Shown piece by piece: positions 23,034-61,411 of a DNA stretch of 64,000 nucleotides. A program made the translations under genes and the position numbers. The notes beneath the pieces were generated by a model. That model was given only the letters and a program-made list of their open reading frames with translations. It was not told the origin of the DNA and ran no database searches. The stretch comes from Patescibacteria group bacterium (GTDB lineage Bacteria; Patescibacteriota; Patescibacteriia; 2-02-FULL-49-11), in NCBI GenBank assembly GCA_041645165.1, contig JBAZQN010000005.1:19832-83831 (forward strand). The letters are read 5' to 3'. Position 1 is the first letter of the stretch. Each line of letters opens with the position of its first letter.

Positions 23034-23296
23034 ACTTACCTTATAACGCGTTTCAATCTTCCGCGTGCTTCTGCGTAATAATCAGCGTTCTTCCGCTTCT
23101 AATCTTCATAGAAGCAGACCCACCTGCCAGCGCCTTTGATTATGAGCACACTGTAGTATGATTATAGGTTTAGCGTCACGGTCGCATCTCATATCAGGGG
23201 ATAGGCCATGGCGGGCAGGTATACGCAGAAAGTTAGGCAGATTTACGCAGATATTGAATTACGAATCATAGTGTAACCATTTAACTTTAACGCCTT

Positions 23297-45314: not shown

Positions 45315-45434
45315 TGCCTGTTGACAAGAGGTAGGTGGTTTGTATAGGATGAGAATAGTCTATGTACCATTGCACCAAGGTCAACGCCATCATTATCAGC
45401 ATTATACTTGTAAGCCCTTTCAAGAGGCCTTGAT

Positions 45435-47378
45435 GTGCATTCGAAATTAATGCGAAACGTCACGAGCCTCCACTCAAAGGGGCTCGATTTCATTTTAAGT
45501 TCTATGCCGCAATCAACGCCCAATGCACCGGACACGGCACTGCTTATGGATTGGCAGGCGCGTTGCCATGAGTGCGGCATGGAGTTTAGCCTGCACGAGG
45601 CGGTCCATCGCTGCCTCCATTGCAAGGGGCCGCTCAACCTTCTTTGCGATTATCAGGAGCTTGCGCGATTCATTAACCAGACTGACTGGAAAGAGTCAAA
45701 CCTGCGCTCCAGCAAATACTGGCGCGCGCTTCCTCTGGGGAATTTCACGCAGATCGTGACTCTGCAGGAAGGTGTCACGCCTTTGAAGCTCCTGTCGAAC
45801 CTTGGGGAGCGGCAGGGCATTAAGCGCTTGTGGGCGAAATTGGAGAGTGAGAACCCCACGGGATGTTTCAAGGATCGCGGGTCGCTTTTGGAAATTTCTT
45901 GGGCCGTGCAGCATGGGTATAAGGCAGTGGTGTGCGCATCCACCGGCAATATGGCCGGGTCGGTCGCGGCGTACGCGGCAAAAGCAGGACTTGAATGCTA
46001 CATTTTTGTGCCAGAGGGAGTGCCCATTGGCAAGCTTTCCATGATTATCGCGTATGGCGCGAAGCCTATTGCAGTCCGCGGAAGCTACAATGACTGTGTG
46101 CGGCTGGCAGAATATTTAGCGTCCGAGGAGGGTTACTTTCTCGCCGGGGATTATGCCCTGCGCGCAGAAGGGAGCAAGACGCAGGCCTATGAAATTATCG
46201 AACAGCTGCACTGGCAGGTGCCAGAGTGGGTGGCGGTGCCCATGGGGAACGGCACGAATCTTTCAGGGATCGCAAAAGGTTTCCAGGATCTTTTAGCGCT
46301 TGGCCTTATTGACCGCTTGCCGAAACTTCTTGGCGTACAGGCGGCGCAATCCTCGCCTATAGTTGAAGCATGGCAGAGGAATGAGGCGAAAGTCATAGCG
46401 TCTGAATCGCTCGCCCAGACCGTGGCGCAAGCGGCAAATGTGGGTAATCCTTTGGATGCCACGAAGGCCTTGAGCGCGATCAGGGAAAGCGGGGGACAGG
46501 CGGTCGCGGTGAGCGAGGAAGAGATTTTGTGCGCGCAGGAAGAATTAAGCAGGGCAGAATCAGTGTTCATAGAGCCGTCGTCCGCGCTTGTCTGGGCAGG
46601 GGTGAAGAAACTGAAAGAACAGGGAACAGTGAACAGTGATCAGAGTATCGTTTTGGTGCTGACAGGCCATGGCTTAAAAGATCCCAAGAGCGTGCTCGTG
46701 AGGGCGGTGGAACCGCCGGTTATCGCGCCCACCGTTGCCGCCTTGCAGGAATTATGGAAGGAGCGGCTGTATGCGCTCACAAAGGTGAGCAAGAGTGAAG
46801 GTATGAAAGTCCTGTGGGATGCGCACACTATCCCTACGGACCTTGGCGTGCGGGCGAAGAAGCTTTTCCATGTCGCGCTGGATAAGGCGCATGAGGAGCG
46901 GCTCGCAATTTCCGTCGCGCAGTTCCATGAGAAAATGCATGAGATGACGCTGCACAGTTTCAATCTCCTCCTTGAAGATGTGACCAAACTCCCGTACGAT
47001 TACCAAGAGATACTGCGGATTGCGGATTTCACCATCCAGGTTCCCCGGCACGCGATGCCGCGCGCCGAGGTAAGCGTGAAGCTCAACGGCGGAACGTACG
47101 AAGGTGAATATGAGGGCGTGGGGCCGGTTGACGCGGTCATTAAGGGCGCAGAAGAAGCGCTTGCCAAATCCCCGCACGGCATTCCCCATGCACTGGTGGA
47201 TTACGACGTGGAGATCGACCGCGGCGGCACCGACGCTATTGTCCGCGTGCACCTCGCGCTTGAGCACCCGAACGGCGCCAAGGTGACCGGCTCGGCGGTG
47301 TCGCCGGACGTCATCACCGCGTCCGTGGTGGCGTTTGAGAGAGCATATAATTTGTTGTATCAAAAGGTGACATCGTAA
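45435..47378 (+). CDS. Threonine-synthase-like PLP enzyme fused to a C-terminal LeuA-type allosteric (LeuA_dimer) regulatory domain
   Basis: N-terminal Zn-ribbon (CHECG..CLHCKG), ThrC PLP motif ENPTGCFKDRGS and a fold-type II core. The C-terminal ~200 aa align to the LeuA regulatory domain (GVGPVDAVIKGAEEAL; LVDYDVEIDRGGTDAIVRVHLALEHPNGAKVTGSAVSPDVITASVVAFERAYN vs E. coli LeuA ..[37 protein letters not shown]). Confidence 0.8.
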   Translation: MHSKLMRNVTSLHSKGLDFILSSMPQSTPNAPDTALLMDWQARCHECGMEFSLHEAVHRCLHCKGPLNLLCDYQELARFINQTDWKESNLRSSKYWRALPLGNFTQIVTLQEGVTPLKLLSNLGERQGIKRLWAKLESENPTGCFKDRGSLLEISWAVQHGYKAVVCASTGNMAGSVAAYAAKAGLECYIFVPEGVPIGKLSMIIAYGAKPIAVRGSYNDCVRLAEYLASEEGYFLAGDYALRAEGSKTQAYEIIEQLHWQVPEWVAVPMGNGTNLSGIAKGFQDLLALGLIDRLPKLLGVQAAQSSPIVEAWQRNEAKVIASESLAQTVAQAANVGNPLDATKALSAIRESGGQAVAVSEEEILCAQEELSRAESVFIEPSSALVWAGVKKLKEQGTVNSDQSIVLVLTGHGLKDPKSVLVRAVEPPVIAPTVAALQELWKERLYALTKVSKSEGMKVLWDAHTIPTDLGVRAKKLFHVALDKAHEERLAISVAQFHEKMHEMTLHSFNLLLEDVTKLPYDYQEILRIADFTIQVPRHAMPRAEVSVKLNGGTYEGEYEGVGPVDAVIKGAEEALAKSPHGIPHALVDYDVEIDRGGTDAIVRVHLALEHPNGAKVTGSAVSPDVITASVVAFERAYNLLYQKVTS

Positions 47379-50324: not shown

Positions 50325-50780
50325 ATGAACTATGTATCCGCCGAAGGAAGGCAGGGAAGGGTAATGGTAGCTCGGTTTAAGCCCGGACAGGATTTGCGTG
50401 ACGCATTGAATGCTTTTTGCCTTGAGAAGGGGATAAAAGCCGGCTATATTCCGGTACTCTTAGGAGGATTCAAGAATCTCAAGGTGAATGCGATGGCGCA
50501 AGGAGAGGAGGATGACCAACCGCGCACTGTCTTGCGCGAGTACCGCGAGCCTCTGGAATATTTCGGCTGCGGCACGGTTGCATTTGCGGACGGCAAGCCT
50601 TCGATCCATATCCACCTTACTGCGGCGCAAGGGAACCACAACGCGGTCGGAGGGCATCTCGTATCCGGAGAGATCGTCTTTCTAACAGAAGTAGTTATCG
50701 TGGAGGTTGAGGGCATTGTCATGACGCGCCAGAGTGATCCCGAAGTTTTCAATATGCCCCTTTTGCATTTTTCCCATTGA
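50325..50780 (+). CDS. PPC-domain (DUF296) protein
   Basis: GRVMVARFKPGQDL..IKAGYIPVLLGGF..HIHLTAAQGNHNAVGGHLVSGEIVFLTEVVIVE resembles the PPC/DUF296 fold. The start may be at an internal Met. Confidence 0.5.
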   Translation: MNYVSAEGRQGRVMVARFKPGQDLRDALNAFCLEKGIKAGYIPVLLGGFKNLKVNAMAQGEEDDQPRTVLREYREPLEYFGCGTVAFADGKPSIHIHLTAAQGNHNAVGGHLVSGEIVFLTEVVIVEVEGIVMTRQSDPEVFNMPLLHFSH

Positions 50781-50909
50781 TCCCGTTGATAATAAATGAG
50801 ACATGGTTTAATATGAGATGTCCTTTAATCCATAATTCAATTATTTATACAGTTTATATACAACGGGGTTGACATAAAAACCCGGCGGGAGTAGCCTTAG
50901 AATATACCT

Positions 50910-50966
50910 ATGCAAAGTACCGCAACCAATCAGATTTTTAGCGTTGTTATCCTTATCCAGCCGTGA
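50910..50966 (+). promoter_or_regulatory. Candidate ilv leader peptide MQSTATNQIFSVVILIQP (6 of 8 consecutive residues I/V/L)
   Basis: 18-codon ORF read directly. It sits 36 nt upstream of a terminator hairpin and 310 nt upstream of ilvC, which fits branched-chain-amino-acid attenuation. Confidence 0.5.
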
Positions 50967-51002
50967 GGGTGGCCGCTTGCGTATACGCAATACCGTCGCA
51001 GA

Positions 51003-51027
51003 GGCCGCCCGAAAGCGGCCATTTTTT
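51003..51027 (+). terminator. Rho-independent terminator / attenuator hairpin in the ilvC leader
   Basis: GGCCGC-CCGAAA-GCGGCC followed by ATTTTTT. Confidence 0.6.
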
Positions 51028-51276
51028 ATACCAAATAATGGATCGCAGCAATTTTAGGTTTCACGCGTATGTACGCAGAAGCCGTCCGCGTCACCTTTAG
51101 TAATATTTGGCGTTTAGTGCGTATGCGGACGGACGCAGACCCGCCTGCCTACGCCTATGGTCGGGTACGAACGAGAGTAAGGTTATGCATCTAAAGTCAC
51201 AGGTGTATCTCATTCATGAATAGAGGCTATGGCGGGCAGGTCAACGCAGATATGTATTATTTTTTATTTTACTACT

Positions 51277-52326
51277 ATGAAGATTGATTTCGGCGGCGTT
51301 ACGGAAGACGTTGTGACCAGGGATGAATTCCCTTTATCGCGCGCGCAGGAAGCATTAAAGGATGAGACCATCGCGGTGCTTGGCTACGGCGTGCAAGGGC
51401 CGGGGCAATCCCTCAATATGCGCGATCAAGGCTTTCGCGTCATTGTGGGCCAGCGGAAGGGTACGGATTCGTGGGATAAGGCGGTGAATGATGGATGGAA
51501 GCCGGGTGAAACGTTGTTTGAGTTGGACGAGGCCGCTGCGCGCGGCACCATTATCCAATATTTGCTCTCTGACGCGGGGCAGAAGCAGTACTGGCCTGCC
51601 TTGAAGCCGCATCTTACGAAGGGTAAGGCGCTCTGTTTTTCGCATGGATTTTCCATTGTGTACAAAGACCAGACCCGCGTGGTGCCGCCCGCCTGTGTGG
51701 ATGTCATTCTGGTCGCGCCAAAAGGGTCAGGTACGTCCGTGCGCAGGAATTTTTTAAAAGGCAGCGGGATAAACGCGAGCTTTGCGGTGTTTCAGGATGC
51801 GACAGGCCATGCGCGCGACCGCGCGATTGCCTGCGGTATTGCAGTCGGTTCCGGTTTTCTCTTCCCCACCACGTTTGAGAACGAGGTATGGAGCGACTTG
51901 ACCGGCGAGCGGGGTGTGCTCATGGGTGCGCTTGCGGGCATTATGGAGGCGCAGTACAACCTCCTCCGCGCCAAGGGTCATTCGCCCTCTGAAGCGTTCA
52001 ATGAAACCGTGGAAGAAGCTACACAAAGCCTCATCCCTTTGATTGCAGAAAAAGGTATGGACTGGATGTATGCAAACTGTTCGACGACTGCCCAGCGCGG
52101 CGCGCTTGACTGGCGGCATAAGTTCCGCAAGGCAGTGGAGCCGGTGTTCGAAGAGCTCTACAAAAGAGTGAAAGAAGGGAAGGAAACGGAAATCGTGCTT
52201 AAGGCAAACAGCGATCCGCACTACCGCGAGAATTTGAAGAAAGAATTGGACGAAATGAAAAATTCCGAAATGTGGCAAGCAGGCGCGGCGGTGCGCGGAT
52301 TGCGTCCCGAAAACTGGAAAAAGTAG
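51277..52326 (+). CDS. ilvC: Ketol-acid reductoisomerase (class I)
   Basis: IAVLGYGVQGPGQSLNMRDQGF Rossmann N-terminus and a KARI C-terminal knotted domain. The start is set at MKIDFGG (the ORF track begins 48 nt upstream). Confidence 0.9.
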   Translation: MKIDFGGVTEDVVTRDEFPLSRAQEALKDETIAVLGYGVQGPGQSLNMRDQGFRVIVGQRKGTDSWDKAVNDGWKPGETLFELDEAAARGTIIQYLLSDAGQKQYWPALKPHLTKGKALCFSHGFSIVYKDQTRVVPPACVDVILVAPKGSGTSVRRNFLKGSGINASFAVFQDATGHARDRAIACGIAVGSGFLFPTTFENEVWSDLTGERGVLMGALAGIMEAQYNLLRAKGHSPSEAFNETVEEATQSLIPLIAEKGMDWMYANCSTTAQRGALDWRHKFRKAVEPVFEELYKRVKEGKETEIVLKANSDPHYRENLKKELDEMKNSEMWQAGAAVRGLRPENWKK

Positions 52327-52383
52327 AAGCCAGTGTACGCCATCACTATGCCAGTATACGCCGCTTAGTGAGGAGTTTAATTT

Positions 52384-52743
52384 ATGAATAACCACATAAA
52401 ACCCATCGGCCCATATTCAACCGCACGGCGTGCAGGCGATCTCCTTTTCTGTTCCGGACAGATCGGGATTGATGGGTCAGGTGCGCTCGTCGCCGGCGGT
52501 ATTGCGTCGGAGACGCGGCAGGCGTTTGAAAATCTTAAAGAGGCGCTGCGCGAGGAAGGCTTCACTCTTCAGGACGTGGTGAAGGCCACCGTATACCTGA
52601 AGGATATGAACGAGTTTGCGGCGATGAACGCGGTGTATCAGGAATATTTTAATCCTCCGTATCCAGCGCGCGCGACCATACAGGTCGCGGCGCTTCCGAA
52701 AGGCGCGTGTATAGAAATTGAAGCAGTGGCAGTAAAGGGTTAG
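52384..52743 (+). CDS. ridA: RidA/YjgF-family reactive-intermediate (enamine/imine) deaminase
   Basis: 119 aa, PIGPYSTARRAGDLLFCSGQIG...ATVYLKDMNEF..R..A..A. Confidence 0.85.
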   Translation: MNNHIKPIGPYSTARRAGDLLFCSGQIGIDGSGALVAGGIASETRQAFENLKEALREEGFTLQDVVKATVYLKDMNEFAAMNAVYQEYFNPPYPARATIQVAALPKGACIEIEAVAVKG

Positions 52744-52761
52744 GTAATAAAATCATTCATT

Positions 52762-54516
52762 ATGTTATTAACAGGAGGCGAGATATTACTCAAAACTTTA
52801 GTAGACCTCGGCGTCGACGTGATGTGGGGCATGCCTGGGGGCGTGGTGCTGCCCTTGTATGACCATTTTGCGAAATACCCACAGCTTAAACACATCCTTA
52901 TCCGCCATGAACAAGGAGGGGCGTTTGCCGCCGATGGTTATGCGCGGGTGACCGGGAACGTGGGGGTATGCTTGGGCACCTCGGGTCCGGGATCCACAAA
53001 CCTTGTAACAGGGATTGCGGGCGCGTTCATGGATTCCATTCCTTTGCTCGCAATCACCGGGCAGGTTGCCTCGCCTCTGATCGGTTCTGACGCGTTTCAA
53101 GAGGTGGATTCCATAGGCATTACGGTGTCGATCGTGAAACACAGCTTTTTGGCGCAAAGGGCGGAAGACGTGGCAGACATAATCACGACCGCCTATTATC
53201 TTGCCGGGTCCGGCCGCCCAGGGCCGGTGCATGTGGATGTGACTAAGGATGCGCTCATGAACAAAGTTGAGTACCAAAAGGGAATAGTTTTAGCGCTGCC
53301 GGGTTACCGCATCCCGCATATGGACGATCCCGAGATGCGCTCAGCGGTGAAACAGCTTGAAACATTATTAGAAAATCCTGATGCGCGCCCCTTAATCCTT
53401 GCTGGGCACGGGGTGGAGCTTGGCGGGGCGGAAAAGGAACTCTTGGCATTTGCGGAAAAATTGCAGATTCCAGTGGCCAATACGCTCTTGGGAACAGGCG
53501 TATTTCCGCAAGGGCATCCTCTGTATCTGGGATCGGTGGGCATGCACGGCACGGCGCTTGCGAACAAGACGCTGGCAGAATCAAATGTAGTGATCGGCAT
53601 AGGGATGCGCTGGGACGACCGCGTGACAGGCGATTTGAAAAGCTTCAAGAGCGGCAGGCAATTTGTCCATTTCGAGATAGACCCGTCCGAGGTTGGCAAA
53701 ATTATAACTCCCGCAGTAGCTTTCATGGGCAACGTGAAGGATACGCTCTCATCCGCCGTGAGGGAGATGCAAACGCGCGCGTGGCCGAAGTGGCGGCGCT
53801 CCATTGAAGAGTGGAAAGCCGCTTGGCCGCCATTCGCCCTTCCTTATCCGCAAGCTGAAGACGGTCCCATTTCCCAGCCGTGGGCGATCAGCCTGCTTTC
53901 GGAAATGACAAAGGGCGAAGACATCGTGGCATCAGACGTAGGCCGCCATCAGATGTGGGTGATGCGCTATTACCGGTTCCGCCATTCGCACTCGCACATT
54001 TCGCACGGAGGCTTAGGCGCGATGGGATTCGGCGTGCCCGCGGCCATGGGCGCGAAATTTGGCGCGCCGGGGAGGCGCGTGTGGGCAGTGAGCGGCGACG
54101 GCAGCTTTCAGATCAATATCCAAGAACTCGCGACGATTGCGGAAAACAAAGTCGAGGTAAAAATGGTGCTGATGAACGACGGATCGCTGGGTATGGTGCG
54201 GCAGTGGCAGGAGCTTTTCTACGGCTCGAACCTTTCTGCAAGCACTTTTTCAGGGAATCCCGATTTCGTGCGCGTGGCAGAAGCGTATGCCATTCCCGCG
54301 CGGCGCGTGGAGAAAGCTGCGGATTTGCGGCAGGCGTTTGAGTGGGCTATGCAGACTCCCGGGCCGGTCCTTGTTGAGGTGCGGGTTGACCCGCAGGAGC
54401 ACGTCTACCCCATGGTGCCGGCAGGCAAGGGAGTGCATGAGCAGATCATTGTTGACCCTCGACGGGCATTACATGCGGAATCGCACTTGAAATTAAGCGC
54501 GTCAACGAGCGATTAA
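52762..54516 (+). CDS. ilvB: Acetolactate synthase large subunit
   Basis: 584 aa ThDP enzyme (GGAFAADGYARVTG.., GSDAFQEVD, the ThDP-binding GDGSF...N...LG motif). Confidence 0.9.
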   Translation: MLLTGGEILLKTLVDLGVDVMWGMPGGVVLPLYDHFAKYPQLKHILIRHEQGGAFAADGYARVTGNVGVCLGTSGPGSTNLVTGIAGAFMDSIPLLAITGQVASPLIGSDAFQEVDSIGITVSIVKHSFLAQRAEDVADIITTAYYLAGSGRPGPVHVDVTKDALMNKVEYQKGIVLALPGYRIPHMDDPEMRSAVKQLETLLENPDARPLILAGHGVELGGAEKELLAFAEKLQIPVANTLLGTGVFPQGHPLYLGSVGMHGTALANKTLAESNVVIGIGMRWDDRVTGDLKSFKSGRQFVHFEIDPSEVGKIITPAVAFMGNVKDTLSSAVREMQTRAWPKWRRSIEEWKAAWPPFALPYPQAEDGPISQPWAISLLSEMTKGEDIVASDVGRHQMWVMRYYRFRHSHSHISHGGLGAMGFGVPAAMGAKFGAPGRRVWAVSGDGSFQINIQELATIAENKVEVKMVLMNDGSLGMVRQWQELFYGSNLSASTFSGNPDFVRVAEAYAIPARRVEKAADLRQAFEWAMQTPGPVLVEVRVDPQEHVYPMVPAGKGVHEQIIVDPRRALHAESHLKLSASTSD

Positions 54517-54680: not shown

Positions 54681-54938
54681 ATGCAATACAATGAGTTCCA
54701 TTTCAAGATTACCCTCGAAGCCATGAATCACGTGGGCGTGATGACGCGCATAACAAATGTGCTGCGAAAGTTCAGCCTGAATATTTATGAATTCAGCGGC
54801 AAGACGCACCCCGAAGACCCAGAGCGCTTTACAATGTATCTTTGGGTAGCAGGCCCCAGAGAAAACTGCGATTATATTTTCAAGAAATTGGAAAAGATTA
54901 TCGATGTGGTGAAGATTGAGTGGAAGGGAGTGAAGTAA
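54681..54938 (+). CDS. ilvN: Acetolactate synthase small (regulatory) subunit, short ACT-only form
   Basis: 85-aa ACT-like domain (NHVGVMTRITNVLRKFSLNIYEFS) immediately after ilvB. Confidence 0.55.
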   Translation: MQYNEFHFKITLEAMNHVGVMTRITNVLRKFSLNIYEFSGKTHPEDPERFTMYLWVAGPRENCDYIFKKLEKIIDVVKIEWKGVK

Positions 54939-61283: not shown

Positions 61284-61308
61284 AAAAAAATCCTCCCCTT
61301 ATGGGAGG
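61284..61308 (-). terminator. leu attenuator terminator (minus-sense CCUCCC-AUAA-GGGGAGG + U7)
   Basis: Perfect hairpin plus a U-run read from the minus strand, 28 nt downstream of the leader-peptide stop and upstream of leuA. Confidence 0.75.
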
Positions 61309-61336
61309 TAATAGGTAGAATTTTGACTACGCAGCA

Positions 61337-61411
61337 TTACTTCCCACCCGGTAATGGAAGGAGGAGAGAAGTAAGGAGAAGCGAGTGAATGGCGGTGGTT
61401 TGATGTGTCAT
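61337..61411 (-). promoter_or_regulatory. leuL: leu leader peptide MTHQTTAIHSLLLTSLLLPLPGGK (7 Leu in 10 codons before the stop)
   Basis: 24-codon minus-strand ORF. Its 3' end (GGGAAGUAAU) can pair with AUUACCUCCC (the 5' half of the terminator) as an antiterminator. The Leu-codon region (CUUCC...) can pair with GGAAG of region 2. Confidence 0.7.

Follow-up and report, generated by a model that had tools for sequence, protein, structure and literature searches.

Upstream of ilvC-ridA-ilvB-ilvN in a 64,000-nucleotide (nt) window of Patescibacteria group bacterium contig JBAZQN010000005.1 (assembly GCA_041645165.1, positions 19,832 to 83,831) lies a compact element, which spans about 118 nt from ATG to U-run and combines a short open reading frame (ORF) with competing antiterminator and terminator helices, as predicted from the sequence. 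Judged from its sequence, this element is probably a ribosome-mediated leader-peptide transcription attenuator of the four genes. The original prediction had proposed an attenuator at this position, and the proposal was supported by conservation of the element in relatives, by an antiterminator that can now be defined, by the terminator and by sister elements in the same window. The host, going by its sequences, is an uncultured bacterium of the Candidate Phyla Radiation (CPR) that is known only from metagenomes.

The leader ORF and its conservation in relatives

The leader ORF lies within the 496-nt intergenic gap (50781-51276) that precedes the true ATG start (51277) of ilvC, which encodes ketol-acid reductoisomerase (KARI). 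It has the 18 codons, the IFSVVILI tail and the end at 50966 that were originally described, and the leader gap itself is also present, with its size corrected from 490 bp. The proposed control codons lie 2-6 codons upstream of the stop codon, and the first strand of the antiterminator, region 2, begins immediately 3' of the stop. A Shine-Dalgarno (SD) sequence is absent at the leader ORF, as at most genes of this genome. Only about 7 of the 34 window genes checked had an SD-like sequence before the start codon, and start regions were A/T-rich instead; an exception is the PCC-domain gene at 50325, which has a strong GGAGG. Taken alone, the leader ORF is no more than chance would produce, as about 40 short ORFs with at least six Ile, Leu or Val residues in eight occur on the two strands of the window. 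Its sequence and setting suggest that it is translated.

The ORF was compared across loci obtained by IlvC scans of genome and metagenome collections, which yielded 160 loci, mostly 70-77% identical, to which exact look-ups of the closest IlvC proteins added more. The window IlvC is identical to NCBI MFA4872851.1 and is present also in ENA and Logan assemblies, and the related IlvC cluster at 84% identity includes proteins assigned by name to Candidatus Uhrbacteria and Kaiserbacteria. The element occurs in five distinct versions: that of the window; L168/L169 (ilvC 94% identical, leader MQSTVTNQIFSVVILIQP); L163 (91%, MRNNASNQIFSVIILIQP); L164 (86%, MNKPSQNIINVVVLIQP); and L083 together with 12 identical copies (84%, MQRHSRNFINVVVLIQP). 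All four further variants sit immediately upstream of ilvC.

The ATG, the reading frame (despite an in-frame one-codon indel), the position of the stop codon, the tail V/I-V/I-V/I-L-I-Q-P and the terminator were kept in all five versions. The window tail IFSVVILI corresponds to NVVVLI or SVIILI in relatives, and changes within the control codons were only synonymous or between Val and Ile (GTT GTT ATC, GTC ATT ATC, GTC GTC GTC and GTC GTG GTC). At the nucleotide level CTTATCCAGCCGT, GG(G/A)TGGC, GCCGCCC, GCGGC and the T-run were invariant, and divergence was seen in the N-terminal half of the peptide and in the loop of about 25 nt between the helices. A lack of conservation of the leader ORF had been named beforehand as grounds for abandoning the attenuator; the comparison was run, and the ORF was conserved in the five variants. 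One speculation is that the conserved Gln-Pro-stop ending delays peptide release and keeps the ribosome over region 2, yet CCG could equally have been retained merely as part of region 1, the first of the pairing segments described below.

The specificity of the pattern was assessed in 177 ilvC upstream regions. A short ORF rich in Ile, Leu and Val, a hairpin and a T-run occurred together in 17 loci, all of this clade, and in one false hit that is apparently the end of a longer upstream reading frame, giving a false-positive rate of about 1 in 160 unrelated ilvC upstream regions. Unlike the ORF alone, the combination of features is specific to the clade. No more distant copies were found by regular-expression and pattern scans of all fetched loci. 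When the leader was compared by BLASTN with the first 82 loci, only the window's own contigs were matched; the homologues, too diverged in the loop and the N-terminal part, were found by reading the regions upstream of ilvC.

A promoter-like pair precedes the ORF. TTGACA at 50869 had been noted originally as lying 23 nt from the best -10-like hexamer; the TTGACA is present, but the hexamer in question is TAGAAT (50898-50903), and the spacing problem disappears because a conserved TAGCCT sits 17 nt from TTGACA. TAGCCT is kept in L168, L163 and L164, and L083 has TAGCAT with a 16-nt spacer (TTGACT-16-TAGCAT). The -10-like hexamer lies 12 nt (window), 7 nt (L168), 12 nt (L163), 11 nt (L164) or 6 nt (L083) before the ATG, and the predicted 5' untranslated region (UTR) is accordingly about 0-6 nt across the variants, that is, a nearly leaderless transcript. 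In all three leaders of the window (the two sister leaders are described below), TTGACR is followed after 17-18 nt by TAnnnT ending 11-12 nt before the ATG. TAGAAT was also considered as the -10 element of a strictly leaderless transcript; AGAAT motifs lie 0-6 nt before the sister ATGs, an inconsistent position, and TAGAAT was set aside because TAnnnT 17-18 nt past TTGACA is the consistent one. Going by its conservation, TTGACA-17-TAGCCT may be the promoter of the element.

Competing helices and the proposed mechanism

The terminator consists of GGCCGC (51003-51008), the loop CCGAAA, GCGGCC, a single A and TTTTTT. The hairpin and T-run were present at 51003-51027 as first read, and a consensus scan flagged the site as terminator-like. 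Such sites were not enriched locally (3 found in the 2-kb region, 2.4 expected). The upstream copy of GGCCGC that had been reported also exists, at 50971-50976 and not at 50968-50976. No clean antiterminator could be defined in the original prediction; one can be defined here as GGGUGGCC (region 2) paired with GGCCGCCC (region 3), so that region 3 would serve as the 3' strand of the antiterminator or as the 5' arm of the terminator, whose 3' arm is region 4. Regions 1 to 4 and the other features are listed in Table 1.

The minimum free energy (MFE) fold of the leader was a long hairpin in which the 2:3 helix is joined by pairing of 50960-64 (region 1) with GCGGC at 51015-19 within region 4, and in which the small terminator does not appear. 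Across the five sequences the terminator helix was 96.7% paired, with one G-C to G-U change in L168; the 2:3 helix was 95% paired, counted over cells; the combined 2:3 and 1:4 structure was 96.9% paired; and region 1 was invariant and 100% paired. We infer the pairing from complementarity and conservation, not from covariation.

The strength of the antiterminator was assessed with 1000 dinucleotide shuffles of the stretch from the stop codon to region 3, the statistic being the energy advantage of the antiterminator over the terminator plus local folding. The native advantage was reached by 7 (window), 0 (L163), 3 (L164) and 13 (L083) of the 1000 shuffles, and the terminator was retained in the MFE fold of about 82-95% of them. 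These models showed a thermodynamic competition between the helices, just as the comparison showed the sequence elements and their conservation.

Folding was then modelled with a ribosome masking part of the RNA, its footprint being assumed to be the P site plus 13 nt; rows from automatic terminator picking were left aside for L168, L164 and a leuA leader homologue (L184), in which the MFE fold extends into the U-run. With the A site at the stop codon, regions 1 and 2 were covered and the 3:4 terminator formed. With the A site at Ile16 (stop minus 9), region 1 was covered, the 2:3 helix formed and region 4 was left unpaired in four of the five sequences; the switch was weaker in L083, which has an A-C mismatch in 2:3. 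An A site at Leu15 gave the same switch as Ile16 in L163 and L164, and the terminator re-formed in the window and L168. When the A site was placed further upstream, or the ribosome was absent, the RNA adopted the long hairpin of 1:4 and 2:3, which stops 2 nt short of the U-run. A clean switch was obtained for no more than the last one or two control codons, and exactly which codons would be effective for stalling is uncertain from such modelling.

In the proposed mechanism, transcription would start a few bases before the ATG at 50910, from TTGACA-17-TAGCCT, and a ribosome would translate the 18-codon ORF as RNA polymerase advances. When charged Val, Ile and Leu tRNAs are ample, the ribosome would reach the UGA and cover regions 1 and 2, so that region 3 would pair with region 4 and transcription would stop at the U-run. 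When the ribosome stalls at the Val, Ile or Leu codons that lie late in the ORF, region 2 would be exposed and would pair with region 3 once this is made, leaving region 4 without a partner and allowing the polymerase to read through into ilvC. Without a ribosome, the long hairpin, with 1:4 stacked on 2:3, would abut the U-run and probably terminate transcription too. Sequence features are what suggest both termination at the T-run and a response to the supply of branched-chain amino acids (BCAAs). The leader ORF is likely co-transcribed with ilvC, because only 25-35 nt separate the terminator from ilvC in three lineages, a gap that leaves no space for another promoter. If the attenuator is classical, starvation should raise readthrough, and this response should be lost when region 2 is changed from GGGUGGCC to GGGUCCCC and restored by a compensating change at 51003-51010.

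Table 1 Positions of the ilvC leader element, its associated genes and the two sister leaders in the window.
Feature	Position	Strand	Description
-35-like hexamer	50869-50874	+	TTGACA; TTGACA also in L168 and L164, TTGACT in L083; the L163 sequence ends short of the site
-10-like hexamer	50892-50897	+	TAGCCT; 17 nt after the -35-like hexamer, 12 nt before the ATG; predicted 5' UTR about 5 nt
Leader ORF	50910-50966	+	ATG at 50910, TGA at 50964-50966; 18 codons plus TGA; peptide MQSTATNQIFSVVILIQP
Proposed control codons Val12 Val13 Ile14 Leu15 Ile16	50943-50957	+	GTT GTT ATC CTT ATC
Region 1	50960-50964	+	GCCGU, spanning the ORF end and the stop codon's first base; paired to the GCGGC in region 4 in the free-RNA MFE fold
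Region 2, putative antiterminator 5' strand	50967-50974	+	GGGUGGCC; starts directly past the stop codon; predicted to pair with 51003-51010, 8 bp including one G-U
Small loop hairpin	50977-50990	+	UUGCGUAUACGCAA, between regions 2 and 3; lineage-specific, the stretch differing in L163, L164 and L083
Region 3	51003-51010	+	GGCCGCCC; terminator 5' arm (GGCCGC) and putative antiterminator 3' strand; GCCGCCC invariant in the five sequences
Region 4, terminator 3' arm	51015-51020	+	GCGGCC; terminator-like site in the consensus scan
Terminator T-run	51022-51027	+	TTTTTT; TTTTT at this place in all relatives
Spacer from terminator to ilvC	51028-51276	+	249 nt; lineage-specific insertion with a dispersed intergenic repeat at about 51132-51250
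Genes proposed to be regulated	ilvC 51277-52326; ridA 52384-52743; ilvB 52762-54516; ilvN-like ACT subunit 54681-54938	+	Pfam matches and gene calls on the contig; ilvB encodes the acetohydroxyacid synthase large subunit
Ile-rich leader	45362-45496	+	MYHCTKVNAIIISIILVSPFKRP (45362-45433), then hairpin CGAGCCUC/GGGGCUCG with U-rich tail (45463-45496); precedes the threonine-synthase-like gene that starts at 45504
Leu-rich leader	61284-61411	-	MTHQTTAIHSLLLTSLLLPLPGGK (61411-61337), terminator CCUCCC/GGGAGG plus U7 (61308-61284); upstream of leuA (61145-59952)

Sister leaders and known attenuators

Two further leaders of the same general kind lie in the window. The leader upstream of leuA contains seven Leu codons and a hairpin, CCUCCC-AUAAG-GGGAGG. 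A putative antiterminator is formed by GGGAAGUAA, which includes the stop codon, paired with UUACCUCCC, and the stretch of Leu codons can pair with GGGUGGGAAG, giving the classical 1:2, 2:3, 3:4 layout. In masked folding, the leuA terminator was present in free RNA, was lost at most A sites on the two Leu runs and the intervening Thr-Ser codons, and re-formed once the A site was on the final Leu of the second run. L180/L181 (MHQTIAIRSLLGLLLLTYWGGK) and L184 (MRYTQPILLGLLLLPDFGGI) have homologues, likewise with Leu runs and terminators. The distance from the leuA terminator to the gene is about 130 nt, with further hairpins, in the window and about 20 nt in L180. In one relative (L182 and L183, 1-1145), whose leuA is 80% identical, only 55 nt part leuA from the end of a gene for a group II intron reverse transcriptase (RVT_1 and GIIM), and this gap showed no Leu leader.

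The leader upstream of the threonine-synthase-like gene contains five Ile codons and is preceded by TTGACA-18-TAGGAT (element region 45321-45496). Homologues were found in L178, from the reference genome MAG041 (MYRYIKVNFIISIILGKPL), and in L179 (MTFSQPAIIINVLIPS); the latter has the layout of the ilvC element, namely the stop codon, GAGGCC, a loop, GGCCUCC-GAAC-GGAGG and U6. The codon bias of the three window leaders fits their respective operons, being toward Ile, Val/Ile/Leu and Leu, and the presence of three operon-matched leaders in one genome is the strongest argument for a functional reading.

The gene behind the Ile-rich leader (45504-47378, + strand) is the first of the ilv cluster and matched threonine synthase TIGR00260 (219.7 bits, cut-off 167.1), not a typical IlvA. 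Its product carries a Cys-rich stretch at the N-terminus and, at the C-terminus, a LeuA_dimer allosteric domain, which the window leuA product (397 aa) lacks. At least 164 protein clusters from CPR, DPANN and NC10 genomes, named threonine synthase, show the same fusion of threonine synthase and LeuA_dimer. In view of its Ile-codon leader, the enzyme may be a feedback-controlled source of 2-oxobutanoate for isoleucine.

In classical attenuators, such as ilvL of ilvGMEDA, ivbL of ilvBN and the trp, his, leu, thr and phe leaders, codons for the end products abound in a translated leader, which is followed by 2:3 and 3:4 helices as alternatives to each other and by an intrinsic terminator. The window leaders would follow the same logic as these leaders, and the leuA leader keeps closely to their four-region layout. 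The originally proposed analogy with enterobacterial ilvL and ivbL holds as a functional likeness, but no Rfam leader family was matched. The ilvC element also differs in lacking a Shine-Dalgarno sequence, in its very short predicted 5' UTR, in pairing region 1 with region 4 rather than with region 2, and in its host phylum, Patescibacteria. Rfam gave no match at the gathering threshold in the whole window, and permissive searches of the 3-kb region, the window and the three leaders gave only sub-threshold noise. None of the leader families (Leu_leader, Thr_leader, His_leader, Trp_leader and Phe_leader) matched the ilvC element, nor did the T-box; the sole leader-family hit was Phe_leader on the leuA leader, at 13.9 bits compared to a gathering score of 55.

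By analogy, the closest described case appears to be the ilvBNC attenuator of Corynebacterium glutamicum, which has a 15-aa leader (MTIIRLVVVTARRLP), a transcription start one nt before the start codon and competing hairpins (PMC11857589). Both leaders are short (15 aa there, 18 aa here), mix Ile, Val and Leu codons, end near a Pro, and precede acetohydroxyacid synthase and ketol-acid reductoisomerase genes. Terminator and antiterminator compete in both, and transcription starts at or near the leader ATG, as measured in C. glutamicum (PMC11857589) and as predicted here from the promoter-like pair. No sequence relationship is apparent, no test for one having been made. The gene order is ilvC-ridA-ilvB-ilvN here and ilvBNC there, and the element is about 118 nt compared to a 292-nt leader region. 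Whereas the C. glutamicum model has three hairpins with an anti-antiterminator (H1), the free RNA here has 1:4 nested around 2:3, with the control codons 2-6 codons from the stop and region 2 right behind it.

Leaders rich in Ile, Leu and Val with terminators have been predicted upstream of ilvB across Actinobacteria (PMC1262725), and a Leu-rich attenuator peptide that works alongside CodY is reported for the Staphylococcus aureus ilv-leu operon (PMC5794164); such leaders came to light through comparative genomics or genetics. The likeness is that of a short ORF rich in these residues, or in Leu, overlapping or preceding a terminator hairpin before a BCAA operon; the phyla are different and the sequences unrelated. 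In the literature searched, no paper tied Patescibacteria or CPR to leader peptides or attenuation, and within that literature a leader-peptide attenuator is new for Patescibacteria.

Patescibacteria are usually described as reduced and host-dependent, with little biosynthesis, and to our knowledge almost nothing is known of gene regulation in CPR. If such a conserved set of attenuators is real, some CPR lineages make their own BCAAs and tune the output to tRNA charging, transcription and translation are coupled tightly enough for attenuation in these cells, and translation can begin on mRNAs that have next to no 5' UTR and lack a Shine-Dalgarno sequence. Annotators would gain three small, easily overlooked regulatory genes, and the compact (about 118 nt) BCAA-responsive switch could be tried in heterologous systems. 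The mechanism is ordinary in kind, indeed textbook; what is new and of value is the host group and the compact architecture, the principle itself being familiar. A broader picture can be offered only tentatively, and we regard it as somewhat doubtful: a small CPR clade would have its full BCAA pathway under three compact, SD-less and nearly leaderless attenuators tuned to Ile, Val/Ile/Leu and Leu, the ilvC and Ile-type elements being nested (1:4 around 2:3), with a ribosome parked at the stop codon as the deciding event, possibly prolonged by the Pro-stop ending. Such a picture, if true, would be the first evidence of CPR bacteria sensing tRNA charging via coupled transcription and translation.

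Alternative explanations, spacer repeats and neighbouring genes

Several observations weigh against the attenuator. Two relatives have no leader before ilvC: in MAG041, the closest reference genome (locus L003, ilvC 88% identical), ilvD is followed by a 166-nt gap and then ilvC, with an unrelated palindrome in the gap, and in L167 (83%) a glyoxalase gene lies directly before ilvC. In the window the terminator is parted from ilvC by the 249-nt repeat-derived spacer. TAGCCT matches TATAAT at only 3 of 6 positions, which is weak by E. coli standards, and was absent from the consensus-scan list. No compensatory base changes were found in any helix, every paired position being either invariant or off by just one unpaired cell; in helices so constant there is no covariation. 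The L083 antiterminator, with its A-C mismatch, is not the predicted minimum-energy fold. The competing folds are only a few kcal/mol apart and the outcome depends on the assumed footprint, as the restoration of the window terminator by a Leu15 A site illustrates, and without a ribosome the RNA folds into a long nested hairpin instead of the classical 1:2 plus 3:4 layout. Finally, mutation of candidate control codons in the Streptomyces coelicolor ilvB leader is reported to have had no effect on regulation (PMC1262725), so that a conserved leader rich in Ile, Leu and Val is no guarantee of classical attenuation. The MAG041 palindrome is a perfect 12-nt inverted repeat, ATCTATACCTAT ... ATAGGTATAGAT, in the ilvD-ilvC gap (L003 2335-2500).

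The S. coelicolor result, the nested free-RNA fold and the sensitivity of the predicted switch to the footprint would all fit a regulatory leader that does not depend on stalling and acts instead through ribosome-polymerase coupling, RNA stability or Rho, with the Ile, Leu and Val codons playing little part. We consider this unlikely, as the identity of these codons was preserved through synonymous and Val/Ile changes, the codon bias of the three leaders fits their respective operons, and the element has a good intrinsic terminator as well as a helix that competes with it. Somewhat less likely again is an independent small gene or small RNA (sRNA) that encodes an 18-aa peptide or acts in trans as an RNA of about 115 nt, with its own promoter and terminator and no control of ilvC. 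It has in its favour the promoter-like pair and terminator, the 249-nt (window) and 185-nt (L168) spacers before ilvC, and the trans-acting leader peptides and attenuator RNAs reported in Sinorhizobium. The terminators of L163, L164 and L083, however, lie 25-35 nt from the ilvC start with no space for a second promoter, the long spacers consist of dispersed repeats and look secondary, the N-terminal half of the peptide is not conserved, and the element was found before ilvC only.

Competition between terminator and antiterminator could also operate independently of translation, in a T-box-like or protein-binding riboregulator with an incidental ORF. In this connection GAGGGUGGCCGC presumably echoes the T-box motif AGGGUGGNACCGCG, from the 5' side of T-box antiterminators. 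We think such a riboregulator improbable: neither a T-box nor any other Rfam family was matched, even when filters were relaxed and E values of up to 10 admitted; the ATG, frame and stop were kept through an in-frame indel; the roughly 57 nt from the predicted start to the motif are all ORF and leave no space for a Stem I or specifier domain; and the 2:3 helix lacks a bulge that could accept a tRNA 3' end. A T-box identity proper was rejected for lack of an Rfam hit, of space for Stem I and of a helix bulge. Least probable of all, and very improbable in our judgement, is a chance ORF beside the ordinary terminator of the upstream PCC-domain gene. Short ORFs of this composition abound in the window and there is no local enrichment of terminator-like sites, yet conservation already contradicts this reading: the ORF, promoter-like pair, antiterminator and terminator were kept in relatives, some of which have ilvD and not the PCC gene upstream; the terminator lies 223 nt past the PCC stop codon; and the pattern is rarely met in unrelated ilvC upstream regions.

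The long spacers before ilvC were analysed separately from the proposed attenuator. The distance from terminator to ilvC is about 25-35 nt in L163, L164 and L083. Part of the window spacer matched window 23111-23229, at 69% in a 120-nt BLAST match and at 73% mean column identity once aligned. The 185-nt spacer of L168 is a different one, whose 3' part is another repeat that recurs in other intergenic regions, including window 52322-52385. The first repeat family is about 115 nt long, with a GCCUGCC/GGCGGGC closing stem and ACGCAGA flanks (window 51132-51250 and 23111-23229); the second is about 65 nt long and contains GTATACGCC (window 52322-52385; L168 2926-2995, 290-358 and 4053-4089). These two dispersed families account for the long attenuator-ilvC spacers in the window and L168, and we read the long spacers as secondary repeat insertions that lie outside the switch. 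A consensus scan predicted no promoter-like site inside the spacer (51028-51276). A second regulatory RNA in the spacer was considered and rejected, since its fold was not unusual (z = -0.67), it is absent from three lineages and it consists of dispersed repeats.

Pfam matches identified the neighbours upstream of the element as a PALP plus LeuA_dimer protein, ilvE, ilvD and a PCC-domain protein. Downstream of the ACT small subunit lie an aminotransferase and, on the opposite strand, leuA-leuC-leuD-leuB. The acetolactate synthase small subunit (54681-54938, + strand), which lies 164 nt from ilvB, is 85 aa long with a single ACT domain, about half the usual length, and this 85-aa form was also found in relatives (L170 and others).

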